Assembly: GCA_032718475.1 (NCBI GenBank)
Contig: JAUCBJ010004787.1
Span: forward strand, 1 to 64,000
DNA: 64,000 bases
Direction of reading: 5' to 3'
DNA from: Nemertoderma westbladi
Taxonomy: Eukaryota; Animalia; Xenacoelomorpha
Every line of letters starts with the position of its first letter. The stretch's first letter is position 1. Shown piece after piece: positions 14,921 to 61,200 of this stretch. The notes beneath the pieces were generated by a model that was given only the letters and a program-made list of their open reading frames with translations, did no database searches and was not told where the DNA came from. The translations under genes were made by a program, and so were the position numbers.

Positions 14921-15145
14921 CCCTACTACTACTCGTGGCATGGCAATATGCCACACTCCCTTACCCCGCCGCCTTCTAACCTCTCTACTTACTATCCTTT
15001 ACTACTTCTAACTTTTACTAACTATTATTTTAATTATTTAATTATTTATTATTGTTTATTTAAATTAAATAATTATTTTTGTGGGAAGGGCGTCTCGCCA
15101 TCATTCCCACCCCCCTCAGTCCAAAATATTGGACGACTAAACCTC

Positions 15146-19023: not shown

Positions 19024-19097
19024 GTTCGTCCTCTGTCTGTGTCTAGCAGTTACAGTTCGGCAGGCCTAGAGTTAGGACTGGGACGGTTAGTTAGGAC

Positions 19098-41437: not shown

Positions 41438-43932
41438 ATGGCCGACGATTTCAGTAAACTTCATAGCGACGTCACGACGTTATTTCGTTCAATAAAGCAA
41501 AAGAAAAGTGTCTCCAATGACGATGAGAAGCGGATCTCCGATTTGTTGATGGCCATGAACTCCATCTACACCACCACATTAACTGACGTAGCAGAGGCTA
41601 GGAAAATCGCTGTCGACGCGCAACAAGAAGCCATATTGAGTAAAAATAAACTCATCGATGTTCTACAAAGCAATGCTACCGGTACATCAATCGTAGGCGG
41701 GTACCCAACCCAGCCTTCCTTCAGTTCTGTGGGTTCCAACGGCGGCAACCGACAGCCGCTTGTGAACCCCCACGTCGCTAATTCCCAAGTTCCTCGTACA
41801 ACCGCAATTTCCTTTCTGCATTTCCGCATTTCCACTGGTTTTGGGTCGTAAAACAGGTGGCCCTCTTCGCGCTGCCAAGCCACCCCCAACCCTAACACCG
41901 GGCGTTCTCATGTCCACATTGGCCGGCTGGACTTATCGACAACCCGAGACGATATACCGGATTACCTAAGACGAGAAGGCGTTAGTTTTCAGGATGTTAT
42001 TCAGCTACCTCTGAAAGACGGAAATTCACCATTCCAGAGTTTCCATATCATATGCGAACACGAACAACGAGACAACATTATGGACCCCTCATTAAGGGAA
42101 GAAGGGATTAGCATCCGCAACTACCGGCTGTCCGATAAGGATCGGGCGGATCTCGGGCTCCGTCCACGAGCGACCCGCGCAGCCGACTCGGACAGTCAGG
42201 TCCCTGCAGACAATACTCAACGTACGATAAACATAAACAATACAGCCTAGGTCAGGAGCGTTGATGTACAAGTATCGGTTCGTTTGTGGAATGTAGAAGG
42301 ATACCGTTACCTCGCTACCAATCTTACTGATATCCAACTCTACGGCAACTGTGATGTCGTACTATTTACAGAAACAATGTTTACCGATGAGACCCTAAAC
42401 CCAAACTCGTACTACCCATATATTCAGCCCGCAACTAAACCGAGTAGGGGTCGGCCGGTAGGAGGTCTCATGATTCTCTGCAGGCCTTGGCTAACCCCAA
42501 GTTTAATAAAACAGTCTGATCATTATATCGTAATAAAATCATCCTGTGCGTATTTTGCAGTATTCTATTTCCACCCTGATGTCCCATTAGCAGAAATATT
42601 ACTGATAATATTCGAGGCGCTCTCCTACACGAACCCCAACATTCCTATTATAATAGGAGGGGACTTTAACTGTCGGCTCGACTTTGGATCACGCGGAACT
42701 GAACTCACCACTGACCTCGCCAACATTGGTTTTATTGGATTAAACTCTCCAACGATTCCCACATATATTTCGCCCCAAGGACAGAGCGTTATCGATTTGA
42801 TGTTTGTAAAATTCCAGTGTCCAACACAGGCGCCACTGCCGCACTTAATAGTCGAGCAGAACCCTGCAAGGAAACACCAACCAGTATCTGGTACTTTCTC
42901 TTTGGCTTCCAGTTTACCGATCCCTCAGAACATGCCAGCACGTCTATCCCGTAAAATAAATCTACAAAATTTCATATCCCACCCTAACCATACAGGTATC
43001 TACCAGCAGCTAGCAGTGAATAATATAGATAATGCCGCCGATCTTCTAACCGAGCTAATGGCGGACTCGACGATCCCGAAGAAATCGAAAATCTTTGGTA
43101 AACCTTGGTTCGATACAGAATGTCGCAGGTCAAAACAACAGTTAATCGCCGCCATGGATGTTCGAAATAACTCAACTGCCGAACAATCCAACTTCTGGTA
43201 CCTCAGGAAAGAATACAAAGCTTTAACAAATCGAAAACGAAACAAATTCGAGGAGGACACACTTATGGATCTTGTTAGCCGCTCAGAAATTAAACCATGG
43301 CTATTACATAAAGAGTATAAACGCACAATTGCCCCTATCGACCCAGCCACATTGAAGTCTCATTTCCAAGATCTGCTCGGAGTTTCTGGAGACGTTCCTA
43401 ATGTTCCTACAATACAGACAACCTCGCTCAATGAACGGCTAGATACCGAATGGTACAACGACCCAATTACGGAGAACGAGATAGCCCATAGTATAAACAT
43501 GTGCAATAACGGGAAAGCTAGCGGTATGGATGGTATCTTTTATGAACACCTCAAACTCACAATGCCATTTATACTTACATTGCTGTTGGTGTTGTATAAT
43601 GCCTGTCTAAATATTGGCAGACTACCGCAACGCTGGAAGGAATGCATAATCCTTCTCCTATACAAAGGCAAAGGACTAATTACAAAACCAGATAACTACA
43701 GGGGAATTGCATTGTTATCTGTATTTATTAAAACTCTCACATCTATAATAAACACTCGTGTTCGATGGTACATAGCACACAAAATTCCGTCGGAACAATA
43801 TGGTTTTATGCCTAATAAGTCTACGGCCGATGCCCTACGTATACTGATAAACGACATTTACTCTGCTTTACAATCGGCAAATAAATCAGATCGAAAAATG
43901 TATGCAGCATTTGTAGATTTTCAGAAAGCCTT
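41438..43932 (+). mobile_element. RTE-X-like LINE (ORF1 and APE-RT ORF2) interrupted by B2 and A2
   Basis: ORF1 from ATG 41438, with an RRM-like VHIGRLDLSTT segment after a frameshift; ORF2 breaks at FVDFQKAF exactly at the B2 TSD. Confidence 0.8.
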
Positions 43933-44008
43933 TGTTAGCTTATTCAATTCCGCTAACACCCCACAAAGTCAACCGTTAAGCAATATTGGGGGCCACGAGA
44001 TTGGGTAA
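42284..44008 (+). CDS. LINE ORF2: APE endonuclease and N-terminal RT (last ~25 aa are read-through into the B2 LTR)
   Basis: Motifs WNVEG, FTETM, GGDFN, SVIDL, KPWFD, NYRGIALLS, QYGF and FVDFQKAF. Confidence 0.88.
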   Translation: MWNVEGYRYLATNLTDIQLYGNCDVVLFTETMFTDETLNPNSYYPYIQPATKPSRGRPVGGLMILCRPWLTPSLIKQSDHYIVIKSSCAYFAVFYFHPDVPLAEILLIIFEALSYTNPNIPIIIGGDFNCRLDFGSRGTELTTDLANIGFIGLNSPTIPTYISPQGQSVIDLMFVKFQCPTQAPLPHLIVEQNPARKHQPVSGTFSLASSLPIPQNMPARLSRKINLQNFISHPNHTGIYQQLAVNNIDNAADLLTELMADSTIPKKSKIFGKPWFDTECRRSKQQLIAAMDVRNNSTAEQSNFWYLRKEYKALTNRKRNKFEEDTLMDLVSRSEIKPWLLHKEYKRTIAPIDPATLKSHFQDLLGVSGDVPNVPTIQTTSLNERLDTEWYNDPITENEIAHSINMCNNGKASGMDGIFYEHLKLTMPFILTLLLVLYNACLNIGRLPQRWKECIILLLYKGKGLITKPDNYRGIALLSVFIKTLTSIINTRVRWYIAHKIPSEQYGFMPNKSTADALRILINDIYSALQSANKSDRKMYAAFVDFQKAFVSLFNSANTPQSQPLSNIGGHEIG

Positions 44009-44477
44009 CCAATAACTCGTGTCACCCCAACAAAGTGGGAAGGAGAAACGCACAATAAGGGTCAGGGGCCAAACCCCTAACAGAGGGAGAATAGCTGGAG
44101 TGAACGGGAACACTCCAAAGGGCGCCAACAGGGATATTAGCCAATCAGGGGGGAAGCATCGGCTAGGTACTGTAGCAAGGCCAAACCGTGCAATATATTA
44201 TTAGGTACCAGCAATCATTCAGTTCAGTTATCTCAGTGTGTTATTGGTGTTAGTTAGGTTAGTTTAGCTAGGGAAGTACCGGGACTTCAATCACCGTATC
44301 CCGCCTTCCATATATCAACATTCAGTCTATACATTACAACATATCTATCTTATATCTATCTATTATACCCGGAAATTATATACGACGAACAACGCAAACT
44401 CTTTTACCTTTCACACACGGCGGGGACGCGTAGATTGACAAACGGATAAATCGGGATCCTTCGTGGATCCCGTCACA
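43933..44477 (+). repeat. 5' LTR of B2
   Basis: Near-identical to 54316-54857; CCAAT and TATA-like motifs; terminal hairpin CGGGATCC-N5-GGATCCCG. Confidence 0.95.
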
Positions 44478-44547
44478 GTGATTGAAACCAAGCTGCTACC
44501 CCTAGTTAGCTAAACAGTGACTACCAGCCACCAATCTAAAGTACGAG

Positions 44548-46460
44548 ATGAGTCAGTCAGGAGAGACGACACCGACGCGGACCCCGGACGAAGAACTAAC
44601 GATCCGCGAGGCCGCGACCAGACGGTATAGGCCCACGACGCCGGACCCATCGGTAACGGGTCACCCGGCAGATCAGGATGGAGGGGACCGTCTGGAGTCA
44701 GAGATCGAGCCGAGAGAACCGGGAGCCGAGTTGGGAGAAGGAGAGGGCGAGAGGGACGGAGAAGAAGACGAGTCGACACGGAACGAGGGTCGACGTGCCG
44801 ATGTCGCCGGCCAGCCACAGGCCGAGGGCGACGAACGGCCCACCGAAACGGCGACGGTGGGACCGACGGTACAACGCCGGACCCGGAGAGATGAGGGAGA
44901 TGTCGGTACCGATGTCGCCGGCCAGCTACAGGCCGAGGGCGACGGACGGCCCACCGGAACGGCGACGGTGGGGCCGCCGGTACGACGTCGGACCCGGAGA
45001 GACGGAGGAGAGGTCGGCGACGAGGACGTCGGGGTTTCTGATCGACTTCGACGGGCCTACAACGCGACCCGGAAGCTACTCAAGGAGGCCAAGGAGGGGG
45101 CGAAGATAGATGAGGTGAAGTTAACAAGAGGACTAGGTGAGTCGGATAGACATTTTAGCTATCTAATGCGTTTCGGGCAGAGAGAACTGGCCAAGGAGAG
45201 AGCGAGAGGGGTTGCAGAGGAACTGTGTGATTTATGGCGGTGTAGGGGTATGCAACCTAGTGCAGTGTACGTAGGGCCATACTTAGTCGATGCCCAGGGT
45301 GTAAAATTTGTGGGTTGGAGGAGACCTGAGGAGGGCGAATCTGCGGGAGGTTGAGCCCGAGGATTCGATCTCGTCGGTCGGGGGAAGTTCTGGGAAGAGG
45401 GGGAAAGTTAGTAGGTCGGGAAGGCGGAGGGAATCCGTCGTAACCGATAAGTCTGCTACATCCTCCGTAAAAGAAAGACGGGTGAGAAAGATAAATGCCA
45501 CGTACCATCTCGACCTGATAGAGCAAGGTCAGAGAGAGTTAAATAGACGGTTAGAGGAGGGGAGAATACAACTAGAGAGGGAAGCGGTACTGATTAGAGA
45601 AACCAGAGAGAGGGCCGAAAGGGCCGCGAAAAGCCTTAGAGAGTGTGAGGAAATAGGGAGGAAGGAACAAGAGGAGCGTGTGGCGAGAGAGAAAAGTGAA
45701 CGCAAAGAGCGTGAGGCGGAACGCAAGGAACGTGAGGCGAGAGAGGAAAATGAACGCAAGGAACATGAGGCGAGAGAGGAGAATGAATGCAAGGAACGTG
45801 AGGCGAGGGAAGAAAGTGAGTGTAGAGAGCGTGAGGTGAGGCGAAGGGAAGGAGCTAAGAGAGAGGCGGAATTGGCCGACCAGAACGCACGGGAGGATCG
45901 GGAGAGAATGGCAAGAGAGGGGCGTGAGCGAAAAGAGTGGGAAAGACAGCAAAACGAGCTTATAGAGTACAAAGCTAGACGCACGCGCGAACTAGAACTG
46001 GCGCGGATAGGGGCATCTGAGAGCGGGACTGGCTCGAATATTTTCGAGGAGCCAAGGGCCGTGGATACATTTATTAATACCCCACTTACAGGGACCGCAC
46101 GACAGACACGAAACTGGTGTGACCGTACGGGCGGGGGGGGGGGGGGGGGGGGGGGGGTAATAATAATATTACCGTAGGCGATGTTAATATTAATGGTACC
46201 GTATCGGATAATCCTAACCAAGCTTATATTGCAGGAAATACTTTGCCTGGTAGTAGTAATTTGAATTTAAATACAAATAGCCTAAATAATAATTTCAATT
46301 TAAACGTGCAAAATAATTCGAATAACAATTTAAATTTAGAAAATAATAATAATTCAAATAATTTAAATAATGATCCAAGCCCGAATTTACAAAACAATTC
46401 AAATAGTGTAGTCACGCAAAATAATCCAAATGATTCTATTTCGAACGAACAAAATAATTC
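44548..46460 (+). pseudogene. B2 gag N-terminal region (frameshifted; coiled coil, Asn-rich tract); capsid, NC and protease absent
   Basis: ORFs 44548-45354, 45308-46177 and 46243-46551 are colinear with B1 ORF 17335-19023. Confidence 0.75.
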
Positions 46461-46480
46461 AGTAGAGCGTAGAGGAGTCT

Positions 46481-49400
46481 ATGAAGTGCGACGAGGGGCG
46501 GTACACCATAGGAATGGTATGGAAACTACCGAAGTTACCACTGCCCGATAATAGAGGGATGGTACTCACGAGGCTCCGCAAGCTGAAACAAACACTAAAA
46601 CGGAGCCCCGAGAAGAATGAGTACATCCACAGAACGATTAAGAAGTACGTCGAGAAAGGATGGGCCGTGGAGTTACCGGTCGACGAACCAAACACGGACA
46701 GGACATATTACCTGCCACTCCACGTGGCTTTAGACCCAAAGAAAGGTAAACTGCGGATGGTAGTTGACGCATCGGCAAAGACCAACGGAAAATGCTTAAA
46801 CGACTATCTGCTAGAAGGTCCAAACATATACAACTCGGGGATAGAGGTCCTACTTAGATTTAGAAATGGGAAACACGCCTTCACGTGTGACATAGAAGGC
46901 ATGTTCAACCAAGTCCGTGTAACGGAGGAAGATAGCGACAGTCAACGCTTCTTATGGTATAACGGCGAGGAAGAACCGTCGATAATACCGACGTACAAGA
47001 TGGTAGTACAGAACATGGGAGCCAAGTCGTCTTCATTTACGACGACTATGGCAGTGAGAGATACAGTGAAGGGGAAGGAGGATAGATACAGCACTAGGGC
47101 CGTCGATATGATTCGACGCGGCTTCTACGTAGACGACGGAATGGAGTCTGGAAATACGGTTAAGGAGATACTGGACACAGGGCGCGAGGTTCGCGACATC
47201 CTAAAAGGATCCGGCTTTAACCTGACCAAATTCCAATCCAGTTCGGAGGAATTTATCAAGGCGATAGAGGACAAGAGACCAGAATCGACCATGGATAATC
47301 CCACAACAGCCAAAGGGCAGGACATGGCGAACAAGAGGACAGAATCTCAACAGAAGGCACTGGGAATCGTGTGGAACAGAGAGACAGACGAACTGAAGTA
47401 TCAGCTGAGCCAGGAGGGCGCAGACATCCACACGAAGAGGGGCTATGTGTCGTATATAGCAAGGATATACGATCCCCTAGGTCTAGCATCCCCACTATTA
47501 GTCACGGGGAAACAGATACTCAAGAGAGTATACAAATTGAAGGATGAGTGGGACGTAGAGGTACCAGAGGAGATCAAGAAACAGTGGTGTAAGTGGACAG
47601 AAGATTTGGAGAAGATGGGAACATACAACATGCCACGAGTGTATTTCCCGGATGGGAACATGACGAATCTGGACCTACACATGTTCTCCGATGCGTCGTT
47701 GGAGGCGTACGGAGCGGCACTTTATTTAGTACAACGAGAGGGGGCTCACAAGCCCAGACTGGCCTTTAGCAAAGCAAAGTCAACGCCGCCAGATTCAGCA
47801 TCAGTTCCCAAATTAGAATTGACAGCTGCGAGACTAGGAGTTAGAGCCACAGCCTACCTAGTGGATACTATTCCCAACATAGTGGAGACACACTACTGGA
47901 CGGACTCCATGGTAGTGCTTGGTTGGCTACATAACGAAAGGACGAGATACCCAATATTCGTCGCGAATAGGGTGGACGAGATAAGGGCGACCACAGAATT
48001 GGAAAGGTGGCACTACTGCCCGACGGACGAGAACCCAGCGGACTTGTTATCAAGGGGCGTGGCACGCCACACTTTCTTAAAAAAGGAAGGATTGTGGCAA
48101 CACGGGCCGCAGTTTCTGAGCGACAAGGAGGCCTGGCCGCCGATGAGAAAGGTGGACCCGGACTCAGGAGAGGTAGTGTCAGAAGGAGAAGAGGGAGATT
48201 CAGAGGGAGAAGAGATATACTCCCAGATGGTGAGGGAGATAAGGGACGTGCAACCTAAACCAGAAGAACTGTGCGATAACCCGACAGATAAACTCCTCAG
48301 CTACAGCTCTAGTTGGTATAAGACCAAGAAATTAGTGGCGTACTGGAGAGCCTTCGGGAATTTCCTCGCGGGAGTTGGCAAAGACAAGAAGATCAGGACA
48401 ACCATAGATCTGGAAGGAGCGGCCAAGGCAGTCATCCGCTATGAACAACGGAAGAACTATGGCGACGAGGTGGAACGCGTCGGTAAACAACAGCACCTTC
48501 GACGGGACAGCGAGCTGATCACGCTGTCGCCACAACTTAATGACGACGGGATTCTAGTAATGAATTCTAGGGTGGGATACAACAACAGCATAGTCGTACC
48601 ACCGAAACCCATCATCATTCCCACAGGATCGCCAATAGTCCACCAGATTATCTGGGACTCCCACAAGTCGATATTGCACGGGGGCACCAACCGAACTCTC
48701 ACGGAGATAAGGAGGACCTTTTGGGTCAAGCAGTTGAGGAAGAAGGTAAAAGCGGTAGTGGGGCAGTGCCAGACCTGCCGACGAGCGAAGAAGGAGCGAG
48801 CCATACAAGAGATGGCACCACTACCAGCGAGTAGAGTAAGACAGCACGACCCGCCATTTACACATTGCGGTGTGGACATGTTCGGGCCGATAAAGATCAA
48901 GGTGATGCGGCACACGGAGAAACGCTACGGTATTATCTTCGTATGTAACAACACGCGGGCGGTAGGGATAGAACTCGCCCAAGATGCAACCGCATCAGCA
49001 TTTATTAATGCATTAGAAAGATTCAGAGACCGCAAAGGTGGGACGATCGCAGTAATGTACTCCGACAGCGGAACCAACTTTGTGGGAGCAGAGAACGAGA
49101 TGGCAGAGGCCTTGGACATCTTGGAAGGGGAGGAAGTCAGGGCGGCCATGAGACGACGACAAGTAAAGTGGGAGAGAAGGACGCCGTATGCACCACATAC
49201 ACTAGGATGCGTCGAGAGACTGGTGGGCAGTTCAAAGCGTCTCATGACGAAGCTAATGAACACCCACATGGTCACCGAGGACGTCTTGAGGACAGTGCTT
49301 GCGAAGTGCGAGGGTATCATTAATAGCAGACCGCTATATCCGGAGAATGATGACCCTGAGTCATTAGATGTGCTGACACCCAGCCATTTTCTAATGGAAA

Positions 49401-49771
49401 GGCCAGCGACCATCGATATGCGGGGTGTAGACCCAGATGACATACACTCCCGCCAGAGTTGGAAGGTCGCTAAAGCAATAAGCGCAGAGTATTGGAGGAG
49501 GTGGGTTGAGGAATACCTACCCACGCTTCACAAAAGAAGCAAGTGGAGGAAGTCGAATAGGGAGTTAAGAGAGGGAGATCTCGTAATCGTTACGGATGAT
49601 ACTATCATCAACAACCAGTGGCGGTTGGCGAGAGTCGTAGGCACTTACTCCGATGAGGACGGAAGAGTCCGATCGGTAGAAGTGCGGATAGGTGGCAAGA
49701 TCGGTGCGAAAGACAGAAAAACCTACAGGAGAGCTGTAGGGAAATGCTGTCTATTAGAAGGGGCACCTTAG
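46481..49771 (+). CDS. pol: BEL/Pao pol: RT, RNase H, integrase (1096 aa, uninterrupted)
   Basis: RMVVDAS, CDIEGMFNQV, FYVDD, FSDAS, PKLEL, WTDS, NPADLLSRG, H..H...CQTC, GVDMFGP, YSDSGTNFVG, CVERLV and W.LARV...D.VR.V. Confidence 0.95.
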   Translation: MKCDEGRYTIGMVWKLPKLPLPDNRGMVLTRLRKLKQTLKRSPEKNEYIHRTIKKYVEKGWAVELPVDEPNTDRTYYLPLHVALDPKKGKLRMVVDASAKTNGKCLNDYLLEGPNIYNSGIEVLLRFRNGKHAFTCDIEGMFNQVRVTEEDSDSQRFLWYNGEEEPSIIPTYKMVVQNMGAKSSSFTTTMAVRDTVKGKEDRYSTRAVDMIRRGFYVDDGMESGNTVKEILDTGREVRDILKGSGFNLTKFQSSSEEFIKAIEDKRPESTMDNPTTAKGQDMANKRTESQQKALGIVWNRETDELKYQLSQEGADIHTKRGYVSYIARIYDPLGLASPLLVTGKQILKRVYKLKDEWDVEVPEEIKKQWCKWTEDLEKMGTYNMPRVYFPDGNMTNLDLHMFSDASLEAYGAALYLVQREGAHKPRLAFSKAKSTPPDSASVPKLELTAARLGVRATAYLVDTIPNIVETHYWTDSMVVLGWLHNERTRYPIFVANRVDEIRATTELERWHYCPTDENPADLLSRGVARHTFLKKEGLWQHGPQFLSDKEAWPPMRKVDPDSGEVVSEGEEGDSEGEEIYSQMVREIRDVQPKPEELCDNPTDKLLSYSSSWYKTKKLVAYWRAFGNFLAGVGKDKKIRTTIDLEGAAKAVIRYEQRKNYGDEVERVGKQQHLRRDSELITLSPQLNDDGILVMNSRVGYNNSIVVPPKPIIIPTGSPIVHQIIWDSHKSILHGGTNRTLTEIRRTFWVKQLRKKVKAVVGQCQTCRRAKKERAIQEMAPLPASRVRQHDPPFTHCGVDMFGPIKIKVMRHTEKRYGIIFVCNNTRAVGIELAQDATASAFINALERFRDRKGGTIAVMYSDSGTNFVGAENEMAEALDILEGEEVRAAMRRRQVKWERRTPYAPHTLGCVERLVGSSKRLMTKLMNTHMVTEDVLRTVLAKCEGIINSRPLYPENDDPESLDVLTPSHFLMERPATIDMRGVDPDDIHSRQSWKVAKAISAEYWRRWVEEYLPTLHKRSKWRKSNRELREGDLVIVTDDTIINNQWRLARVVGTYSDEDGRVRSVEVRIGGKIGAKDRKTYRRAVGKCCLLEGAP

Positions 49772-49908
49772 GGTGGAGTTAGAGTGTAGTTTAGTCGTCC
49801 AAGTTTGGACTGAGGGGGGTGGGATTGAGGGCGAGACGCCCTTCCCACACATAAAATAAAAATAAAATAAATAAAAATTAGAGTTAGTTAGTTAGGAGTT
49901 AGTTAGAA

Positions 49909-50358
49909 GGTACGTAGTACCTAGAGTTAGTTAGTTAGTTAGTTAGGAGTTAGTTAGAAGGTACGTAGTACCTAGAGTTAGTCAGTTAGAAGGTACGTAG
50001 TACCTAGAGTTAGTTAGTTAGTTAGTTAGGAGGTACGTAGTACCGTTAGTGAAGTTAGAGAGTTAGAGGGTACGTAGTACCGTTAGTTAGAGAGTAGTAA
50101 GAGGGTACGTAGTACCGTTAGTGGAGTTAGGATAAGAGTTAGAGGGTACGTAGTACCGTTAGTGGAGTTAGAGAGTAGTAAGAGGGTACATAGTACCGTT
50201 ATTGGAATTAGAGTAAGAGTTAGAGGGTACGTAGTACCGTTAGTTAGTTAGAGAGTAGTAAGAGGGTACGTAGTACCGATTAGTGGAGTTAGAGTAAGAG
50301 TTAGAGGGTACGTAGTACCGTTAGTTAGTTAGAGAGTAGTAAGAGGGTACGTAGTACC
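49909..50358. repeat. Array of 12 palindromic GGTACGTAGTACC units with TTAG/GAG-rich spacers between pol and ORF3
   Basis: Units start at 49909, 49960, 49992, 50032, 50069, 50104, 50145, 50185 (one mismatch), 50226, 50265, 50307 and 50346. Confidence 0.92.
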
Positions 50359-50797
50359 GATTAGTAAGAGATAGAGGTGGAAGGGTATACATAGTATTGA
50401 TATTAGTCAGTAGTTAGTAGCGAGAGGGGGGCATATATATGAGTACAGTTGGATAGATCGTGTAGGCCACGCGACATATACTGCTGTACTGCACAGGCCC
50501 ATAGAGTAGGTCAGAATGTGGATTATGAAATAGAATAAATTCCATAAGCAATAAATAGTAGAAATAGATTAGAAATAAAATAGAGTAAATAGGGCTAAAA
50601 ATTACAAATTATGGTAACAGGAGGGAAATTATTCTGGAACATAATTAAAGCAACGGACAGAAATTGCAAATAGGGTACATTTGTTAGCTACAAAATTAAG
50701 TAATAGAAATTAGGCTAAAAGGCGTAGTTAGATAGAAAATAGGCCAGTCTCGAACTGTGCAGACCATCAGAAACTTGTCACTCATCTGTATTGCGCC

Positions 50798-53407
50798 TTG
50801 GTAAGGCACCACCTTGCAGGTGAGCGAGTGAGAGTGTTCGGAATGGCGGGAAAACTGATCAGAAAGAGAAAGGCGGAGTCAGGAGGAAAGGAGATACTGG
50901 TGGATTTCACCAAGAGGCATCCGGAAGAGAAGACGAGAGGATACTACGAGAGGTTGGAAAAGGGTCACGCGGCACGAGCGCTGCAGGACCACTTCCGGGA
51001 GATGCACGAACAGCGGCTGGTCGGGACCTATGGGACGCCGTCGCTGGACAACGCAATCTTCCAACACTTCCACTACGTGGTGAAAGGGGACGAGGCGAAG
51101 TTCGGGATTCCGAAGTACCCGAGGGAGTCGCCGAAGAAGGATTGGAAGAGGTTCATGGAGTCCGTCAACAGGGGAGGATATATGATCCTAGACGACGAGG
51201 GAACCGTGGAAGACGAGGTGGGTTCGAGACGAGGATCAGCGGGGTCGGCCAGGACCATACTCCTACATTTGGCCGCGCCAAATGGGGACATTTTCTTATT
51301 CGATCTAGGAACGTATGGGAAAAAGGACGGGCCGAAGTTAAACCGGTTGCCGAAAGCGGTGCAAGTCTTGGTAAGAGAGAAGTCGACGACGAAGGTGGGA
51401 TCGGCGATTCGCGAGGACGCGGGGAGAATCATCGGTCCGGACGCCACCAACCTCCTGGATATGCAGAAGGTCTTCATGGCTATGACGGCACCAGATGGGT
51501 TGGGAGTAGTCGGGAACACAGGCCAATGCGGGGCGGTGGCAATGGGCCAGCTATTGGGGCTCGTATGCCACAAACCGATGGTCTGGGGGAAGTTCAGGGA
51601 GGAATACGGAGCAGAACTAGCGAACTCGCTAAAGTGGGGAGTGAGACCGGGAAGGCAAGAGGTGTATCAATTCCGCAGAGGAGCGATAAAGGTATATCAG
51701 AAGCGATATATCCTGCAGGAAGATTGGATAATGATAAGTTTACTTAACTTATTCATGACCATGGTTATCGAGAGGGAACCAGCAGCATTTCTGTTATCGG
51801 GATCACCCCTAAGCTACAGGAGAGCCTTTAAGACGGCCTTCGACGGTCTGGTAGACCACCCGGGGCTGAAGGGCGAGTCGGTGTACTACAACAGCCGACA
51901 TCTGATAGACGGGGAGACAGATACGCCGTATCAGAGATGGGAGCAGCTAGAGACGGATAGACGAGAGGCAAAGCGACTGGAAGAAGTCGCTAGACGGGAG
52001 AGGATAGAAGCAGAGGAGAGGGAGGAGGAGGCCAGGACGCAGAGTTATGGCTTCGAGGAACAGGCAGGCTTAGACGAACTTCGTTGGACTTCATCAGGGA
52101 GTTCGGGGGAGTCTCTAGGGCGAGAACTGGGATGGATGGTGGGATCGCCGAAACAGTCGACGTCGGGGTTGCAAGCGATGCCCATACCAGTGGGCGCCGA
52201 AGGCGACCAACCGCCACGGAAGTTAAGGGAGCTAGAGGGATGGAGAGCTACGGGCGAGAGCCAAGGCGGGAAGGGACATAGTGGATCCATCGGGATACCG
52301 GGGTTGGAACCACTGCCAGAGGAGCATGAAGACGACGACGAATTTGGAGAGATGCCGCCCATCGGGAGGATAGGCCACTCGGACACAGACTGGGTTGGCG
52401 GGAGGGTGGTGACGGCCAGTGGGCCGGGGGCCTTCTGGGATAGACCCGGCAAGCGGGCCTGGGTCCGCGAGGAACCGGCGATGGATATCGCGGGGAGCAC
52501 TATCAGGTTGGGCGAGCAACCGGGGACGGCACCACGGGTAGTATTCGGGGAGACGATGCCCGAGAGGGGCGAGGAGATCGACGTAGACAGGGACACTAAT
52601 GTGCAGAAGTTCGCCTACCAGCGACTCCACAGACCGCAGAGATCGCTTGGGACGAAAGACGATGTGGGGCGGGAGACATTGGTACTCGGTTGCGATTACT
52701 GTGGGAGACAGACCCACCAGGAAAGGAGCTGTTTGTACCGATTCCAAAAGGGGACCTTTTGTCTCTACTGCCGCGAGTCGAGCCACAGGATGGGGGCGTG
52801 TCCACGGTTGCATAACCGATGTCCGAAGTGTAACTTTCGGGGACACTACGGACGCCAGTGCGACTGGATGGACGACGAAGAGAAGTTCAGAACCTTCGAG
52901 GAGTGGGCCGACGTCGGGGCCATGACGCACCAGCGCATGAAGGCCCAGGAGTTCAAGTGGGGTTTCTTCCTTATCAACCAGGAGGCTCACATGGAAATCA
53001 TTAAGCGGAGGCTACCGTTTACCTATCACGAGGTAGCAACGGCGGCGTCGTATGCCGGGGTGATAAATACACAGAGGTATTTGGACAGGTGGACGCCACA
53101 GAATCGAGGGGAGTTTAGGGATTTCCTGGCGGAGCACGTACCACGGGCAATGAAGATGATCTTATGGGACGCCACCAGGGGGAGACAACAGGGCCACTCG
53201 GAGGGGCCACCCGCGAAGCGATATCGGGAGCTGATAACACCAGCACCCAAAGAGCCAACGACCGGGATCAGTAAGGAGGTGGCGGCGAGGGTCCGAAGAC
53301 AGAAAGCGGATCCCAGAGGAGCGGTAGTGACCAGGAAACGACCCAGGGAGGAGGACAGCAAAGAGAAAGACTTGAGGTGGTTCCCAAAGTCAGGGGGGAT
53401 GAACTGA
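50798..53407 (+). CDS. ORF3: DEDDy 3'-5' exonuclease (WRN/EXD2/Mut-7-like) plus three CCHC zinc knuckles; first ATG at 50843
   Basis: ExoI MILDDEG, LLHLAAPNGDIFLFDL, LPKAV..LV...TKVGSAIRED (ExoII), W..RP...YQKRYILQED (ExoIII); three CX2CX4HX4C at 52691-52861. Confidence 0.8.
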   Translation: MVRHHLAGERVRVFGMAGKLIRKRKAESGGKEILVDFTKRHPEEKTRGYYERLEKGHAARALQDHFREMHEQRLVGTYGTPSLDNAIFQHFHYVVKGDEAKFGIPKYPRESPKKDWKRFMESVNRGGYMILDDEGTVEDEVGSRRGSAGSARTILLHLAAPNGDIFLFDLGTYGKKDGPKLNRLPKAVQVLVREKSTTKVGSAIREDAGRIIGPDATNLLDMQKVFMAMTAPDGLGVVGNTGQCGAVAMGQLLGLVCHKPMVWGKFREEYGAELANSLKWGVRPGRQEVYQFRRGAIKVYQKRYILQEDWIMISLLNLFMTMVIEREPAAFLLSGSPLSYRRAFKTAFDGLVDHPGLKGESVYYNSRHLIDGETDTPYQRWEQLETDRREAKRLEEVARRERIEAEEREEEARTQSYGFEEQAGLDELRWTSSGSSGESLGRELGWMVGSPKQSTSGLQAMPIPVGAEGDQPPRKLRELEGWRATGESQGGKGHSGSIGIPGLEPLPEEHEDDDEFGEMPPIGRIGHSDTDWVGGRVVTASGPGAFWDRPGKRAWVREEPAMDIAGSTIRLGEQPGTAPRVVFGETMPERGEEIDVDRDTNVQKFAYQRLHRPQRSLGTKDDVGRETLVLGCDYCGRQTHQERSCLYRFQKGTFCLYCRESSHRMGACPRLHNRCPKCNFRGHYGRQCDWMDDEEKFRTFEEWADVGAMTHQRMKAQEFKWGFFLINQEAHMEIIKRRLPFTYHEVATAASYAGVINTQRYLDRWTPQNRGEFRDFLAEHVPRAMKMILWDATRGRQQGHSEGPPAKRYRELITPAPKEPTTGISKEVAARVRRQKADPRGAVVTRKRPREEDSKEKDLRWFPKSGGMN

Positions 53408-54277
53408 GACTTCAATGTGGTACGCCTGGAAGGCGCCACGTGGGACGTACGAACTATTAAGTACAAATTCAAAATGATGCAAATAATTAAATAAGTGCAA
53501 TTTATATGTACGTACGTAGTAATCAGTAGTTTAGCAATGAAATATACGTTCGAAGTAAGTACTATAGTCATTCAACCTTTCTCAATTAGCTACTGGGACT
53601 GGGGGGCTAACTGACTATGGCACTATGGACGAGACACTACACAATTTCACACTTCTTGAGTGCGACGGCACAGGAGGGGGGGGTGAGATTCGTCAGAAGG
53701 GATGGGGTAGTCAAAGAGGGGTTGAGTAAAGGTGATAGTGCGGAGTGCGAAGAGAGTGCGAATACAATTCAAGTGTGAGGGAGGAATAAGAGGCTGAGTG
53801 AGGGGCAGAGTGGTAGTGAGGAGAAGTAGAGGAGAGTCAGAGTGAGAACAGTATAGAGTTAAAGTGGCACAAGTGTTGGGGAAACAAAAATTGTATGAGA
53901 GGAGCACACGATCGGCCCGACATGGGACGCCAGGCAAACCGGGTAGCGATATCATACCCATGGGGAGCGGCCTGGAAAGCCGGCTCCGAGAGAAAATAGT
54001 TCCACCCCACACCCGAGTGTGGGGGAGGAGAAGTGAGAGGAAGAGTGTGGGACGAGGAGGTCCGGGAGTATGCGAGAGTTGGAGTAGAGTGGTGAGAGTG
54101 TTGGGGAAACAAAAATTGTATGAGAGAAGCGCACGATCGGCCCGACACGAGACGCCAGAGGGTAGTGACATCATACCCATAGGGAGCGGCCTGGAAAGCC
54201 GACTCCGAAAAAATATACCCACCCCACACCCGATGCTAGATCGGGATCCAGCGGAATTGTAGCGCACTTTAAGGTGG

Positions 54278-54315
54278 ATGCTATCTTCTCACCGGGAAGA
54301 TAGCATGGGGGGGAG
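54278..54315 (+). promoter_or_regulatory. Conserved hairpin and polypurine tract before the 3' LTR
   Basis: ATGCTATCTTC-N7-GAAGATAGCAT then GGGGGGGAG|TG; identical in B1 (13697-13734, minus). Confidence 0.85.
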
Positions 54316-54857
54316 TGTTAGCTTATTCAATTCCGCTAACACCCCACAAAGTCAACCGTTAAGCAATATTGGGGGCCACGAGATTGGGTAACCAATAACT
54401 CGTGTCACCCCAACAAAGTGGGAAGGAGAAACACACAATAAGGGTCAGGGGCCAAACCCCTAACAGAGGGAGAATAGCTGGAGTGAACGGGAACACTCCA
54501 AAGGGCGCCAACAGGGACATTAACCAATCAGGGGGGAAGCATCGGCTAGGTACTGTAGCAAGGCCAAACCGTGCAATATATTATTAGGTACCAGCAATCA
54601 ATTATTCAGTTATGTCAGTATGTTATTGGTGTTAGTTAGGTTAGTTTAGCTAGGGAAGTACCGGGACTTCAATCACTGTATCCCGCCTTCCATATATCAA
54701 CATCCAGTCTATACATTATAACATACTATTTATATCTATCTATTATACCCGGAAATTATATACGACGAACAACGCAAACTCTTTTACCTTTCATACACGG
54801 CGGGGATGCGTAGATTGACAAACGGATAAATCGGGATCCTTCGTGGATCCTGTCACA
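54316..54857 (+). repeat. 3' LTR of B2
   Basis: Direct repeat of 43933-44477. Confidence 0.95.
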
Positions 54858-54862
54858 GCCTT

Positions 54863-57167
54863 TGTTACGGTATATGGCGCTGTATCCACATTGTTAGCCG
54901 TTGTACTGTATACACAATATTAGTTATTATGCAGTACACATTATTAGCCATTATACAGTATAATATATTGGTTCATTATACAGTACACAATATTAGTCCG
55001 TTATGCAGTATAATATTTTAGATAAGATATAATAGCGCAGTGACATTTAGATAAGGAAATTAAAACGCCCATATATTTTGATCTCATCCATTTTGTATAG
55101 TATGTAGCCCTACCTACGTAATTTTGTAATATGATATAAGTAGATAGTTCCAGGGTAGCAAGTTCAGTTGGACCCTGGATTTCGGGCTTGCTGTTATTAG
55201 TCTTGATGGGCTAGCCATCACGGGTTTGATTTCTTTATAATCGCGCTAAAATATCTTTTGTGCATCATGTTATAAGTGCCGCTAAATTAAGCATCGGCAA
55301 AATTACCTTATATGGTGACGTTTAGAGGGTTTGGAGAGCAATAGGGCTACAATCCGGCTTTCTTATTGGACTAACTGCTTCCAGGTTGGTCTAATGCTAG
55401 CGCGGATTGGAGAGCCAATGAGAGAGCGATTGCATCACCCTTCTCGGATCACCTATAAATTGGCGGTTTGCCGGTAGAGCTTACTTCATTTTTACCTCAT
55501 TAACGACACTCACTCAGACATATTTAGTACCATTAAGTTAGAAGTATAATTTGTGCGTATTTTCTGCATTTCTACCTTTTCGATTAATTTCTTGGAATGA
55601 TTCGTTAGTGCTACTATTCTCAATTGTGTTTCTCAATCAATCCTATCGATTACTGCTAATTACAACCGGAACTATGATTTCTACCCCTTTTGTTAATGGT
55701 TCTATGTAATTCATTTCGACGCAATAATCCTACGGGATTTTCTGAGACTGGCAGACTTGTGATTTGCATGCGCCGCTACGGTAGCTATTCATCTTGATGG
55801 AGGGCTAAGGTACCGGTAGGCGGTGGGCGCATCGGGGGGTTGAGCGACTAAGGGAGAGCGGAGGATTCAAAGGCGAGCAACGCTGGCGGGGGGCCACCGT
55901 TGCGGTCGGGCAACTTGCGTTATAGAGGGCAACTTGCGTTGCGGCTGGGGCAATTTGCGTTGTAGTGGGCAGACCATTTGCTGGTACGGCAATTAGGGGG
56001 GGCTGATGATCCAGATTTTGTCTCTATTTTGTAGTATTAGGGGGGCAGGAATTGGGTTAGTTAGAAAGACTTAGATGTACTGGAGAGGCCTGCGTGCTTT
56101 ACAATAGCGAATTGCATGGCAAATTATATAATTGCGGATTGTATAATTGCAAGTTGTACTATTGTGATCTGTGATTGCTGACGCTGATTGGTGTGTTATT
56201 GAAGTGTGCCTATGATTACGAATGCTTAGGTAGGCGCCCCTTTTCTCTTTGATTGATTTCTATTTCTTAGTTTACAATAAATGATTACTGATTAGGTCAA
56301 AGTAATACAGTAATTTAGTCTGTTACTAGTGAAACCTGTTGTGTAATAAATTAGAATTACGCATTCTGGAACTCTTAGTAATTAGTACGCTGTTACATAT
56401 TTGTGACTGTAATTAATTAGTGAAATTAAGAATTAGTACGCAGCATAGCGGAGAGTAGCTAAGGTAATAATTTAGAGTACCGTAAACTATTCACGCTGAG
56501 CGGTTATTTGAATTAGCGGGCAATAAGCTAGATCGCAGTATTCAATACACAACTCGCATTAGTAGATTGCTGGCCTAAAGCCAGCCGCAGGCAAATTTAG
56601 ACCCGGAGTGGTATCGCCCACGAAAGACATTGTACCGTACCATTATTTGATTATTTTAAATATTCTCGCATTCACACATTCCGTTAGGGAACCCCCAGTA
56701 TTCGCGATTAGAAAAGACGTAGGCATTGGCATACTTCAATAGTAGTAAAATTAGGCGTAAGAATATACTCTGAGTGCAAAGCCTCTCGCACTCGTCTTAA
56801 GTAAGCTTAGGGAGCCGACTCGGGTTTATTGTTTTGGTTATTCCCGCGTGGCTCATAGATTCGAACAGTTAGCTCTCTGTCGAGCGATCGGTAGAGAAAG
56901 GAACAAGCGATTTTACAGGAGCCGTGTAAATTTAGTAAAATATATTAGCGGACGGCAGATTAGCGCCATCCAACAGTAAGTAGCGGTTTTGTATTTAGCA
57001 GCCCTACAATTTAGTAATAGCACGCTCCTGATTGCCTTTATTTAACAGTAGAGCAGTCTTGGTGCCTTATTGGTTAGGCGGGAACCTATTAGGTTGGCAG
57101 AGAAGTATACGGGTATTTGTCTGTTCAACAGTTCTGCTGTTAGTATAGGTGACGCGCTAGTTTAACA
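54863..57167 (+). repeat. About 2.3-kb 5' LTR of A2
   Basis: Starts TGTTACGGTATATGGCGCTG like 21011; ends CGCGCTAGTTTAACA matching the A1 end CGCGCTTGCTTAACA. Confidence 0.8.
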
Positions 57168-58259
57168 GTAAAGCACGCATTTATTGGCTGTTGCTTGCAG
57201 CAGTCAAGAGCAGAAGAGTGTATTCTTAGGCTGTTAGGTAGGATTACTGTATTCACTGGTCGCGTACAATAGTACAGTAGTACATTAGGCTGATTGCTGT
57301 TACTGCATACGGTAGAAGGGATATTTGTTTGCCATACCACACACAGTATCAATTAGGCTGTTAGGTTGGTGTACTGTTTTACTTACTGTACTGCATACAG
57401 TGGATGTACGGTAGTGCGTTTTTACTAATTGCGAATACAGCAGTTCCTTAGGCCTTAGGGCGAATTGTAATTAGTAAGTTTTTGAAAATTTTAGCTAGGT
57501 TTGCGAGAATTCAGTTTCGGTCAAAATTATTTGTAAAATTCTAGAGTTTTGTACCGGTATATTAGGTAACCGCTTAGTTATTTTATACCATCTGGAGATA
57601 CATGGCAAGACGGAACTTCTGAGTTTGGGGTTCGTGTGGGTCTGCGGGTTCGGTTTGCAATCAGTGAAGGGACTGAAACTTTGGACGCGGACGTGGAATC
57701 TCACAGCAAACAAGGTTGGTTGTTCTGTTGGCACCATTGTGTTTGTGGAAGCAGTAAAAAATTATCGGTTGTTTAACTGCGAAGCTGAACTCAATTTATT
57801 AGTTAGGTTATTTAGGTTTAGCCGGCCATGGTTTTTTGAATCGCTCAAGTTAGAGAGAGAGTTAGAGAGAGTCGCAACCAGAAGATGTAGCCACGCGCTA
57901 GTGGATACATATAATATTTGAAATTAAAATTATGTTGATTAGAGCTATATATGCAAAATTGGAATTATTTGGGTGGCAAATTCATTCTGAATATTTTGTA
58001 TTAGATTCAGAAATTATTTTGTGTCATACCGGTATTTAATTGCTATATAATAGCTATATAATAATATTTTGTTTAAATATTGTGCTAGTATTTGCTATAA
58101 CTATACCCTATTAAATTCACAATATTGCATTGCGAATTTATTTGACATTTTGGACCAACTGATTATTAGACAAATAATTTGACCGTATTTTCGGTTAAAT
58201 TATAATTATATCTCGAAATTTTGCGAGATTTTTGCCGGAAGGCAAACATTATTTAGACT

Positions 58260-61200
58260 ATGAGTGTCTCAGACAAGGAGGCACTAGAGGACAGCTATGA
58301 GACGGCGGCTGGACCGCCGACTGACGATAGCGTCAATATTACGGTTGACGACAATGCCGACTATGACGACGCAGCGAGCGATGCTGACGTAAGTGAACAG
58401 GAGGACGAGACAGTGACTAGTGAGGAAGAACAACAACCTCAAGTAATAGTATTAGGATCCCCTACCGCTACTGTAAGGCAGGACCGCACAGCAGCCCGGA
58501 CAGAGGTGAGTGATAGGGAGGGTAGTGTAGCAGAAGCGAGAGCCCGGAGCCCGGTTTCCAGACCTGTGGGTATGGTAAGTGCCGTGGTCCCAGCGGCTGT
58601 AAGGAGTACCCGTAGTTCCCGAAATAATCCTTCAAGTCCACCAAGTGTGAGTCAGGTAAGCGAGAGAGAACTTGACATCGCGATAAAGAAGAAACTTCGC
58701 GCGCACGCCGGACATATAACTCGGACGACGGACAAGGTAAGGAAGATGTTAGCCGACTCAGCGAACATCGGAAGGGAAGGGTTAGTAGAGATTAGAAGGG
58801 GATATAACTCAGCGTTATTTAAGCAGACGGAGGAGCTTGCAGTCCTAGCGAAGAGAGCAGTGGAGTCTCAGTCGAGCGACGTGGCGACGAGGGTTTATGA
58901 TAGGGTTTTAGCAGCCTTGTTAGAGCACCGCGAGTTATCGGAGCGATTCCGACGAGTTAGGACGGAGAACTGGCTGCTATGGGCATCACAAGCGCAGGCG
59001 ACTCAGGTGAGTGACGCAGAGTTGAGAGACTTAGTGGAGCGCGAAGAGATCCAAGATAAGGAAGAGCGCCGGTATCAGAGGGAAGTTACTAGCTGGCTGA
59101 TGCAGAGTGGAGTGGTGGTACCGGGCCAGGTGCTACCGACGACGGAGAACATCCAACAGAGAATGTTAACTCCACCCGACGATGCATCTAGAGACAGTGG
59201 CGATTCCCAGGTTAGTCACGCGCGAGGGAAAGTTATATGTGCTAGATCCCTTGTTTCTCACAACTCGGCAGAAGAGAGAAGACGCCGACTAGACGAACAG
59301 CAGGCGGAAGTTTTGCGTGCATCGGAAGCACGGAAGGAGGCTGAGCGGGAACGGGAGCGCACACGTAAGTTGGACGCGGAGTTACGAGAGTTGGAAGAGA
59401 TAAGTAAGCGCGAGCGGACGGAACGCGAACAGAGAGAACGCGAACTCCAAGCCGAGCGCGAGCGCAAGGAACTCGAACTCGAACAGAGAGAACGCGAACT
59501 TCAACTCGAACGCGAACAGAGAGAACGCGAACTCCAAGCCGAACGCGAATGCAAGGAACTCGAACGTGAACAGAAGGAACGCGAGCTTCAACTCGAACGC
59601 GAACGTAAGGAACGCGAACTCGAGATCGAGAAAAGAAGACGCGCATTGTATGAAGAAAAGGAGCGAGTGGAAGAAGAGAGCGCAGCGAGACGAGCGAGGG
59701 AAGAAGAACAACGTAAACTGGCGCAGTTGGAAAGTGCGAGATTAAATTAAAAGAGCGAAGAACGGACCAGGAAGGCGAATGAAATCGCCGAGAAGGGGAT
59801 GCGAATGATCGAAGAATGTGGGGCGAGTGTAGGTACCGAGTTGCGAGAACTGTTCGCACTGCAGAAGGCCGAACAGGAAGCGAGAACTCCGACTATACGC
59901 GAGTCTACGACGACCAGAATTCCTATACCCGGTCCAGCTATTACGAGTACACGGATCGCTAAACCGTTCTCTACATATCGCACACCAGTTGGTATTAGTG
60001 CTTCACCTATCGCGCAGAATCCACGGCATCAGAACACCGCACCACTACATACCGAACGCGAGAACGACGAAGAGTTTAGAGAAACTCCGACGGGCCGAGT
60101 ATTTGGCGAACCGAACCCGCGGGTTTGGAATACGCGGACGGAGCGCCGACCCAGTTCGACGGAGAACTTCCGGGTTAAACCGGAAGAGGGATCATATGAG
60201 AGACAGCGGATTACTCAGATAGAGCCGACTATACAACAGAACCCTAGCCAGGAATTTATTACGAGGGATGAGTTAAGTGCTAGTTTAGCGCAAGCTATAT
60301 CGCCACACATCCAACCTATAACGGACATGCTTAGCAACCTACGGTTAAAGGAAGCAGCCCAGGTAAGAAGTAATTCTAATCCTAGCAGGCCTGAGTTAGA
60401 TAAAGTCCAACCTAGTCAACGAGTACGTATATCGGAGGAAACTATACCACATAGACCTCAGGTAAGGACGCCTGTCCCGAATATCCATAATCCCAATTTC
60501 GAAAATTCGGCAGAGAAATTTATTCAGGAGGCTTGGGTCAGGGCCTCAGCACGCAAACCAACACGAGCGCTAAGGACTGACACCGAGTCAAGCGATGAAG
60601 AGGAAGACATGAGACGTCAGAAGTCCCGAAACTATAAGGAAAGAAGGACGGACGCGGAGCAGGTAAGTTCAAATCCCCGGGAAAGGAACAGACTTAACAA
60701 CCCTGCAGAACTAAACCATTTGTTAACCCGGAACGACGCAACCCTTAGGGACATAGGTAAGTTTGCTGCTAGGCAAGGACTGCCGACGCAACAACCCCAG
60801 AAGTTTATGGGTAACCACAAGCACTGGAGGACGTTCAAAACCTATGTCGACAAGCAGCTAACAGCACCTTTACTCCCAATGAGAAGTTCAACTATTTGCT
60901 TCAGATGCTCCATCGAGAACCTAGAGTCATTGCTGATAACTTCGTCGGCAATGAAAGAGCATTCGAGTTAGCAATGAAGACGCTTAGTGACATCTACGGG
61001 AATAAAACCAAGATGGCACAGTCGATAGTAGAAGACTTGGGTAAGGGCGGAAGGAATACAACTCCGTTAGAGCTGTTGAACTTAGAGAACGCTATTTCGA
61101 ACGCATTGGACATCTTGAGGACGGTGAATCTACCTCATCATGGTGATCACGCCAAAGATTTAAAGAGCGTAATAAGACGTTTAAACATGCGTTACCGCGA

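Follow-up and report, generated by a model that had tools for sequence, protein, structure and literature searches.

Probable self-priming by a BEL/Pao-lineage retrotransposon of Nemertoderma westbladi, and the place of its exonuclease-like ORF3

Priming of reverse transcription by an element's own RNA is described for Tf1, Tf2 and Tj1 of the Tf1/sushi group (Ty3/gypsy), with predictions extending to Tcn1 and to the TAR lineage of copia (PMC7175516, PMC4600332, PMC5341516, PMC6317226). RNase H of Tf1 cuts between bases 11 and 12 (PMC7175516). The Belpaoviridae profile comprises an 18-nt tRNA-complementary primer-binding site (PBS), priming by a host tRNA and an optional env (PMC8742986). Extra ORFs that follow pol, are exonuclease-like and in some cases carry Cys/His motifs are described for the bdelloid Juno and Vesta elements and for Terminons, and 3′-end processing has been proposed for these ORF3s; the main text of PMC5408684, the source of this description, makes no mention of a PBS or of self-priming. 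No paper on self-priming in BEL/Pao was found in a literature search, and PBS or primer-binding terms had no match in PMC3118150, PMC554778 or PMC12440569. Nor did the literature search find a precedent for an element-encoded primer-making enzyme other than reverse transcriptase (RT). Some Cer BEL elements of C. elegans reportedly carry extra ORFs and a self-encoded tRNA-like primer.

The element considered here, element B, lies on the forward strand at positions 43933-54857 of the window, that is, the whole 64,000-nt stretch of Nemertoderma westbladi DNA that was analysed. It is a BEL/Pao-lineage retrotransposon, young yet internally deleted. Its 5′ LTR (43933-44477, 545 nt, TGT..ACA) and 3′ LTR (54316-54857, 542 nt) have TG..CA ends, agree at 529 aligned positions and differ at 13, with 3 gap columns in addition, and are flanked by the 5-bp target-site duplication (TSD) GCCTT at 43928-43932 and 54858-54862; the insertion interrupts a LINE reverse-transcriptase frame at 42251-43932. 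The open pol frame (46466-49771), in the order RT-RH-IN, contains RT (YVDD at 47126), an RNase H region (PF05380, E value 5e-41), integrase and DUF5641 (E value 4e-24), and has 644 BEL-type homologues at E≤1e-30. ORF3 (50732-53407, 891 codons, first ATG at 50837) and a polypurine tract (PPT, 54307-54315) are situated downstream. Broken ORF1 pieces with acidic, coiled-coil and Asn-rich parts occupy 44521-46465. No capsid, nucleocapsid or protease domains were detected in these pieces, so this copy is not autonomous; the missing gag and protease are read as an internal deletion.

Element B agrees with BEL/Pao in its two TG..CA LTRs, PPT, 5-bp TSD and BEL-type pol, and with the Belpaoviridae (PMC8742986) in its LTRs, PPT, RT-RH-IN order, PF05380, DUF5641 and an identity of 31-36% to BEL pols. 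It differs from that profile in lacking the 18-nt tRNA-complementary PBS, and in having an ORF3 that is exonuclease-like and gave no env match. Because the PBS is not of the tRNA type, element B is assigned to the BEL/Pao lineage on its pol alone and counts as an exception to the profile. Its pol is BEL-type and not that of Ty3/gypsy (chromoviruses); any resemblance to Tf1 is at most one of mechanism, and element B falls outside the Tf1/sushi group.

The non-tRNA PBS, GTGATTGAA (44478-44486), is flush with the LTR end, and no TGG was found within 10 nt of the 5′ LTR. TTCAATCAC, the exact complement of GTGATTGAA, is present at 44286-44294 in the 5′ LTR and at 54668-54676 in the 3′ LTR, which confirms the PBS/anti-PBS anatomy on which the sequence-only reading had based its premise of self-priming. 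Complementarity of the PBS to an element's own LTR also characterises the Tf1/sushi group. The predicted transcription start site (TSS), 44226, is derived from a TATA-like box (44194) and an Inr, TCAGTT (44224), which together span 44194-44229 and have identical spacing in element B and in its sibling, element A; this interpretation of TATA and Inr motifs in the LTR follows established knowledge. Counted from that predicted TSS, which lies 60 nt upstream of it, the anti-PBS occupies +61 to +69; the earlier estimate was an internal site some 65-70 nt past the likely TSS. The anti-PBS would form the last 9 nt of a predicted self-primer of approximately 69-70 nt (44226-44294).

A 9-nt complement at offset 0 arose by chance in 114 of 20000 LTR shuffles for element B and in 54 of 20000 for element A; each of the two elements carries the exact match in its 5′ and its 3′ LTR. 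Taken alone, the 9-nt match is modest evidence, since 43 of 1096 non-cognate LTR/PBS pairs also attained 9 nt in a looser search; it is also shorter than the 10-nt rule used for self-primer calls in PMC6317226. Rfam and ARAGORN scans of the 64-kb window gave no matches, so at threshold the window contains neither an element-encoded tRNA nor a known ribozyme. An LTR intron in element B was considered and rejected, as the match was lengthened only by a non-canonical 37-nt GT..AC gap set by eye. AATAAA is absent downstream of the primer in both elements.

In predicted folds, the first 50-70 nt of the predicted transcript pair with the leader. Beyond the PBS, the leader at 44487-44556 would pair with the remainder of the 5′ 60 nt in an extended, interrupted duplex, which covers the ORF1 ATG (44549). 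With the 9-nt core removed, pairing of the 5′ end and leader gave −40.2 kcal/mol vs −29.1±4.4 (14/1000 shuffles) and −32.5 vs −24.0±3.7 (23/1000), and the leader outscored all others in sets of 977 and of 534 interior windows. Part of the extended duplex is due to homology or composition, because a non-cognate pair, the R of element B with the leader of element A, scored −37.4 kcal/mol (75/1000).

Directly 3′ of the primer end, a stem is predicted between 44295-44305 and 44419-44428 (44295-44428); its base, CGT/ACG, is retained in element A, and the remainder has changed there yet still pairs. A terminal U5 hairpin (CGGGATCC..GGATCCCG, 44452-44472) and a variant form of the poly(A) hexamer (GATAAA, 44445) are also conserved in element A. 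The predicted U5 structure ranges from −29 to −41 kcal/mol. The primer:PBS helix had a mean probability in the fold of 0.52 in element B vs 0.91 in element A, and a probability below 0.3 in 5 of 11 folded relatives. Three of four LTR copies have a C:A mismatch on the LTR border, where pairing stops. In 9 of the 13 cases folded, whether or not ORF3 is present, the primer terminates in AC and the next base is C. Element B is like the elements of the Tf1 group in lacking a tRNA PBS, in having a PBS that pairs with its own R region, and in a predicted structured U5 beside a site where a cut would be needed to give a 3′-OH. It is unlike them in its BEL/Pao rather than gypsy pol, in the predicted extended leader duplex, and in a predicted primer of 50-70 nt (up to approximately 200 nt in relatives, ten of which would build it by splicing), compared with the first 11 nt in Tf1.

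Element A (13150-19640, minus strand) is a non-autonomous sibling in the same window, a deletion derivative without pol or ORF3 that retains a knuckle region. Its LTRs (19640-19098 and 13696-13150) align with 539 matches and 4 mismatches, and its TSD is TATTC. The PBS, GTCCTAACT at 19097-19089, differs from that of element B, and the change is compensated in the LTR, where the anti-PBS, AGTTAGGAC at 19295-19287, holds a near-identical position (346-354, vs 354-362 in element B). It had been suggested that this family shows the same pairing without a recognisable exonuclease. The pairing is indeed present, but element A lacks pol as well as ORF3, must therefore be mobilised in trans, and is uninformative on any need for ORF3; it was rejected as evidence on that question.

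Other BEL elements are informative. A BEL search yielded 64 loci (L001-L064), and 32 were scored; the rest had an unreadable LTR end, were duplicates or were non-BEL. The PBS was of the tRNA type in 19 of the 32, all with a self-match of 7 nt or less. The remaining 13 (nine assemblies) had a non-tRNA PBS, mostly starting with GT, and 12 of them matched their own LTR over 10-14 nt, 10 nt being attained by 26 of 1096 cross pairs. Ten of those 12 self-matches appear only across a predicted LTR intron, and for 8 of the 13, on one-LTR or truncated contigs, the LTR end was set by eye, partly after the match was seen. For the five non-tRNA elements with paired LTRs, the self-matches are 11, 11, 14, 11 and 11 nt; L008 and L009, which have canonical donors, show 11 nt, and L014 shows 9 nt by the strict rule and 11 nt by eye, with a 2-nt share of the second exon. 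The self-matches end at most 5 nt from the LTR border. PBS sequences vary across element B, element A and the 13 relatives, each tracking its own LTR, and the siblings L008 and L038, both ORF3-less, show compensatory change between the PBS and the end of the exon, which lies at a homologous GTGAGT donor. In these two siblings, AATAAA starts at the base after the primer end; it is missing downstream of the primer in 5 of the 13. A further family in the window, family C, has a GT-starting PBS with no clear self-match, and was left out of both counts.

ORF3 was found in none of the 13 non-tRNA elements, in which the gap from pol to the 3′ LTR is 98-777 nt and the longest sense frame in it at most 142 aa; in six of them, gag and pol share one open frame of 1724-2184 codons. 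The sequence-only reading put forward, as a hypothesis, that ORF3 makes the self-primer, and proposed co-occurrence of ORF3 with GT-type PBSs across BEL families as a check. That comparison came out against any necessity of ORF3. The accompanying argument, that an internal primer calls for a trimmer, does not discriminate, because Tf1 must also create its 3′-OH by a cut (PMC7175516), and the predicted primers of ORF3-less elements with a readable TATA-like box, approximately 20-200 nt long, are internal as well.

In pol trees, element B grouped with self-type elements and one tRNA-type element (support 100/99). It was placed on a long branch beside the tRNA-type element, outside a clade (97/95) of nine ORF3-less self-type rows, and this position means that its self-priming may have a separate origin and a different working; holding all self-type rows together was not rejected (p-AU 0.19). 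The first of these trees was a quick tree only, from which L002 (153 aa) was omitted, and the second omitted twelve near-duplicate or short rows.

ORF3 itself is likely a divergent DEDDy-type exonuclease, judging from its sequence. Putative DEDDy residues are D154/E156 (51185-51202), D229 (51404-51424), W302 and Y326/E330/D331 (51704-51727); D154, E156, D229 and W302 align with RNase D-like proteins, and Y326 does so in a larger alignment, with the fourth acid ambiguous between E330 and D331. Language-model features (Atlas) gave a score of 0.94, with 25 of 30 matches in a cluster set in which 34% of members have PF01612. A single-sequence structure model (pLDDT 37) had no match; a model built on the RNase D-like alignment, and biased for that reason, reached pLDDT 53, with EXD2 at E 0.05 and RNase D at Z 6.1 (rmsd 3.8 over 148 residues). 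Three Cys/His knuckle-like motifs (52691-52846) and three basic NLS-like stretches were also observed. The earlier description of ORF3 as a 3′-5′ exonuclease with knuckles thus stands as to an open, exonuclease-like frame and the three motifs, and is likely only as to the enzyme, for which no profile matched: there was no Pfam match at E≤10, PF01612 included, and a home-made RNase D profile scored ORF3 no better than 500 shuffles.

Homologues of ORF3 numbered 0 at E≤0.001 in a phmmer search of 1.84 billion representatives; none was found in a protein search limited to 490-1560 aa, among PDB sequences, or among 1120 frames, each 100 aa or longer, taken from the BEL loci and the window. Another search gave solely bacterial RNase D-like proteins among the 120 matches listed, and the knuckle region had no usable Atlas match. 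A pattern for the family's LTR end found 0 metagenome stretches; a metagenome protein scan gave four loci only, viral scans 0, 0 and 1 irrelevant locus, and a first genome scan 0. Among host copies, 24 of the 40 listed ORF3 differences are synonymous vs 12.7 expected (p=2e-4), and none of the 40 alters a putative catalytic residue, a pattern indicating that ORF3 is under purifying selection; constraint on pol is tighter, with 23 synonymous changes among the 25 differences listed. ORF3 resembles the Juno, Vesta and Terminon ORFs by description (PMC5408684), but those elements belong to other LTR lineages, and the 891 codons and three-knuckle region set the ORF3 of element B apart.

Taken together, these data suggest that element B likely self-primes with its own RNA, and that the 3′ end is probably made by an endonucleolytic RNase H cut and not by ORF3. 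The first ~70 nt of the transcript would, in the predicted fold, turn back onto the PBS and leader beside the U5 stem and hairpin. By analogy with Tf1, the RNase H domain of the element's RT would cut after ...UCAC (44294), freeing a long 5′ fragment with its 3′-OH at the LTR border, from which RT would copy U5 and the rest of R. RNase H cleavage, which the sequence-only reading had named as its alternative, fits better than trimming does. ORF3 is unlikely to be the primer maker because related elements show the same pairing without such a gene. A model restricted to this lineage, in which ORF3 starts from a short LTR transcript, from the 3′ end of the genome or from an initial imprecise cut and trims to the end of the duplex at the LTR border, would accord with the C:A mismatch there, with the open, exonuclease-like frame, its three acids and Trp aligned with RNase D-like proteins, and with its excess of synonymous differences and unchanged putative catalytic residues. 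A 3′-5′ enzyme would, however, have to traverse the predicted U5 structure, with a stem starting right after the primer, and enzymes of the DEDD type frequently stop before they reach a duplex. The absence of ORF3 from 13 of 13 other non-tRNA elements, the lack of domain support from Pfam, phmmer and the RNase D profile, the ambiguous fourth catalytic position and the weaker constraint than on pol further argue against trimming, which is considered quite improbable even though 3′-end processing of element RNAs has been suggested for such ORFs (PMC5408684). The position of element B outside the ORF3-less clade would allow a fuller version, in which self-priming evolved apart from that clade and the lineage captured a DEDDy exonuclease, equipped with RNA-binding knuckles, that cuts the 50-70-nt primer back as far as the LTR border; this, too, seems a rather poor prospect.

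The ORF3-less relatives would be fitted equally well by a host nuclease (exosome-, Nibbler- or cleavage-factor-like) that makes the 3′ ends, ORF3 being irrelevant or a captured back-up. The AATAAA right after the primer end in L008 and L038 is in keeping with this, and ten relatives would already need host splicing to build a primer. The sole characterised self-priming system, however, uses the element's own RNase H, and reverse transcription normally takes place within particles (PMC7175516), from which most host nucleases would be excluded; a host enzyme is accordingly regarded as unlikely. Finally, a host RNA (a half-tRNA or other small RNA) might prime, with the LTR-leader pairing serving regulation, such as dimerisation or, because the duplex covers the ORF1 ATG, translation control. 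Half-tRNA priming without TGG is described for copia lineages (PMC6317226), and the core match is only 9 nt, but PBSs that each track their own LTR, and matches that stop no more than 5 nt from the LTR border, make host-RNA priming very improbable.

Of the two outcomes, a link between ORF3 and priming would have been the more surprising. On the comparison, ORF3 is most likely a conserved accessory gene, like the rotifer ORFs, probably of DEDDy type and with another job than primer making, such as 3′-end processing, RNA handling or countering silencing. If the preferred explanation, self-priming with an RNase H cut, is true, a broad BEL branch self-primes with internal primers that are long and, in many cases, put together by host splicing; Tf1-type priming would then reach a third LTR superfamily, with replication tied to RNA processing. 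Element B and its relatives provide a direct test of whether RNase H cuts such junctions far from the RNA 5′ end.

Element B (43933–54857) is bounded by LTRs of 545 and 542 nt, which differ at 13 positions and in 3 gap columns, have TG..CA ends and are flanked by GCCTT. Its pol gene is an open frame of BEL/Pao type (31–36 % identity to the best homologues). With a disrupted ORF1 and neither a capsid nor a protease domain detected, this copy of B is not autonomous. The primer-binding site (PBS), GTGATTGAA, begins at the first base after the 5′ LTR. The sequence-only reading had placed a complement of this site (the anti-PBS) inside the transcript, about 65–70 nt past its start, and again in the 3′ LTR. 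Exact complements are indeed found at 44286–44294 and 54668–54676, and with +1 predicted at 44226 from sequence motifs (a TATA-like box and Inr), the primer end would fall at about +69.

Element A, a sibling on the minus strand (19640–13150), has an LTR homologous to that of B and a different PBS (GTCCTAACT), which is matched by A’s own anti-PBS at nearly the same LTR position. Self-matches such as those found arose in 114/20000 (B) and 54/20000 (A) shuffles. The same reading had cited A as showing this pairing without a recognisable exonuclease. The pairing is real, but A lacks both pol and ORF3 (in B, the extra gene downstream of pol), so it needs a helper and provides no test of the ORF3 idea. 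A 10-nt complement of A’s leader also occurs in the R region of B (44249–44258), upstream of B’s own anti-PBS; judging from it, the primer duplex of B looks as if extended at the PBS end. The predicted cross pair between B’s R region and A’s leader is also fairly strong (75/1000 shuffles). Just after pol, a G run resembling a PPT, an inverted repeat and a cluster of AATAAA motifs form a block (49789–49878 in B, 15048–15142 in A) with 83 % identity between the elements, though A is pol-less; unrelated tandem-repeat arrays follow it in each. This block may serve as an internal site of polyadenylation or of plus-strand priming.

A decayed second BEL family, C, occupies 54863–62980, as well as 21011–22972, 4303–6591 and 9189–12516. 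It starts one base past the right TSD of B, which therefore lies exactly at the junction of a LINE and C; no continuation of the LINE cut by B was found within the window. The C LTR (approximately 2.1 kb) is followed by GTAAGTAGCGG, with a GT start; its best contiguous self-match is 7 nt, and no convincing spliced self-match was found in C. A GC-rich, gypsy-like integrase frame (29737–33276) is unrelated to the B finding. At approximately 3030–3190, an exon-like stretch looks, by eye, similar to the ligand-binding domain of class C GPCRs, and the window may represent a cluster of TEs inside a host intron.

For comparison, BEL elements were gathered from animal DNA inside prokaryote records, and, of the 64 loci obtained, 32 whose LTR end could be read were scored. 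The animal BEL retrotransposons L005–L032 sit in entries classified as bacterial or archaeal genomes, an indication that host DNA was binned or assembled into these. A TGG-type PBS was present in 19/32, with own-LTR matches of 7 nt or less. The remaining 13, from nine assemblies, have a non-tRNA PBS, the match starting with GT in nine, A-GT in three and otherwise in one. Twelve of these have an own-LTR match of 10–14 nt, the LTR ends having been placed by eye in eight of the 13 and the five with paired LTRs giving 11–14 nt. Two matches are direct, and ten span a GT-AG LTR intron, with splicing predicted (L007, L008, L009, L013, L015, L020, L021, L023, L038 and L051). Eight of those ten are exactly 11 nt, the length of the Tf1 primer; non-cognate LTR/PBS pairs reached at least 10 nt in 26/1096 cases and 11 nt in 7/1096. 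Siblings L008 and L038 carry letter changes at a homologous splice donor that compensate those in the PBS. At the level of sequence, PBS/anti-PBS pairing and covariation are demonstrated.

Co-occurrence of ORF3 with GT-type PBSs, which the sequence-only reading had named as a check, is not seen in this set. In all 13 non-tRNA elements, pol ends just 98–777 nt from the 3′ LTR; no sense frame longer than 142 aa was found between them, and the longest (142 aa) has no Pfam match. Where a TATA-like box was readable (4/13), primers of 20, 77, 195 and 201 nt are predicted. Since these ORF3-less elements also have internal predicted primers, an internal anti-PBS is no reason to require an element-encoded exonuclease. 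The tRNA-primed L047, L048 and L053 extend 5.6–6.5 kb past pol, with a baculovirus F-like env in L048 and L053 and extra ORFs lacking Pfam matches in the set.

In the predicted RNA fold, the first 40–60 nt pair with the leader above shuffles even when the 9-nt core is excluded (14/1000 and 23/1000 as good), and the leader is their best partner against any of 977 or 534 other interior windows. Directly 3′ of the primer end, a second stem is predicted that closes on U5; upstream of the PBS, the prediction gives a terminal hairpin. Element A retains both. In B, the PBS helix can be imposed at a cost of just 0.5 kcal/mol (predicted mean probability 0.52; 0.91 in A), and the primer:PBS helix dominates the predicted fold of just 6/11 relatives. 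The architecture predicted for B and A resembles the multi-helix substrate needed by Tf1 (PMC7175516, PMC4600332).

No Pfam match was obtained for ORF3, and homologue searches found no homologue. In the ESM Atlas, residues 127–373 adjoin both unnamed fungal clusters (0.95) and 3′-5′ exonuclease clusters (0.94); in the best named cluster, 34 % of members carry PF01612. D154, E156, D229 and W302 line up with equivalent residues of RNase D-like proteins, the fourth acid being E330 or D331; a profile built from these proteins gave no detection above shuffles. The structure model without an alignment was unusable, and that with one gave weak DEDD-fold matches, biased by the alignment. Many divergent copies of the ORF3 domain occur in host contigs, which derive from four DNA runs representing no more than three samples. 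Among the 40 differences listed (76 more lie outside the listing) there is no indel, 24 are synonymous (12.7 expected) and none alters a putative catalytic residue; for pol, 23/25 of those listed are synonymous. ORF3 thus belongs to the regular makeup of B’s family and is under moderate constraint; its product is probably of the DEDDy type.

The 3′ end of the primer most likely arises as in Tf1: the transcript would fold back on itself, the RNase H of the RT would cut past the anti-PBS, and the freed 5′ fragment would prime minus-strand synthesis from the LTR border. That a host nuclease makes this end is considerably less probable. Slightly less probable again is trimming by ORF3, confined to B’s lineage. 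In both pol trees, B groups with the self-type elements (PBS matching their own LTR) and with L012, a single element of tRNA type; the quick tree gives this group an SH-aLRT of 99 and the careful tree 100/99. B, with a long branch and unusual composition, falls outside a 97/95 clade of ORF3-less rows. A constraint uniting all self-type rows was not rejected (p-AU 0.19). Trimming by ORF3, the model of the sequence-only reading, survives because the trees leave a single origin of these rows unproven, but all 13 other non-tRNA elements lack a comparable post-pol frame, and the link between ORF3 and primer formation is not supported. Least probable is priming by a host RNA, with the LTR/leader pairing being regulatory.

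Exonuclease ORF3s in LTR elements, with the idea of 3′-end processing of element RNA, are already published (PMC5408684, PMC5718144). No report of self-priming in BEL/Pao was found in searches of the open-access literature. The self-priming signature of B is, as a sequence feature, solid. B is a BEL/Pao member by pol that departs from the tRNA priming of the ICTV profile (PMC8742986); it would work in the manner of Tf1 while standing outside the Tf1 group.
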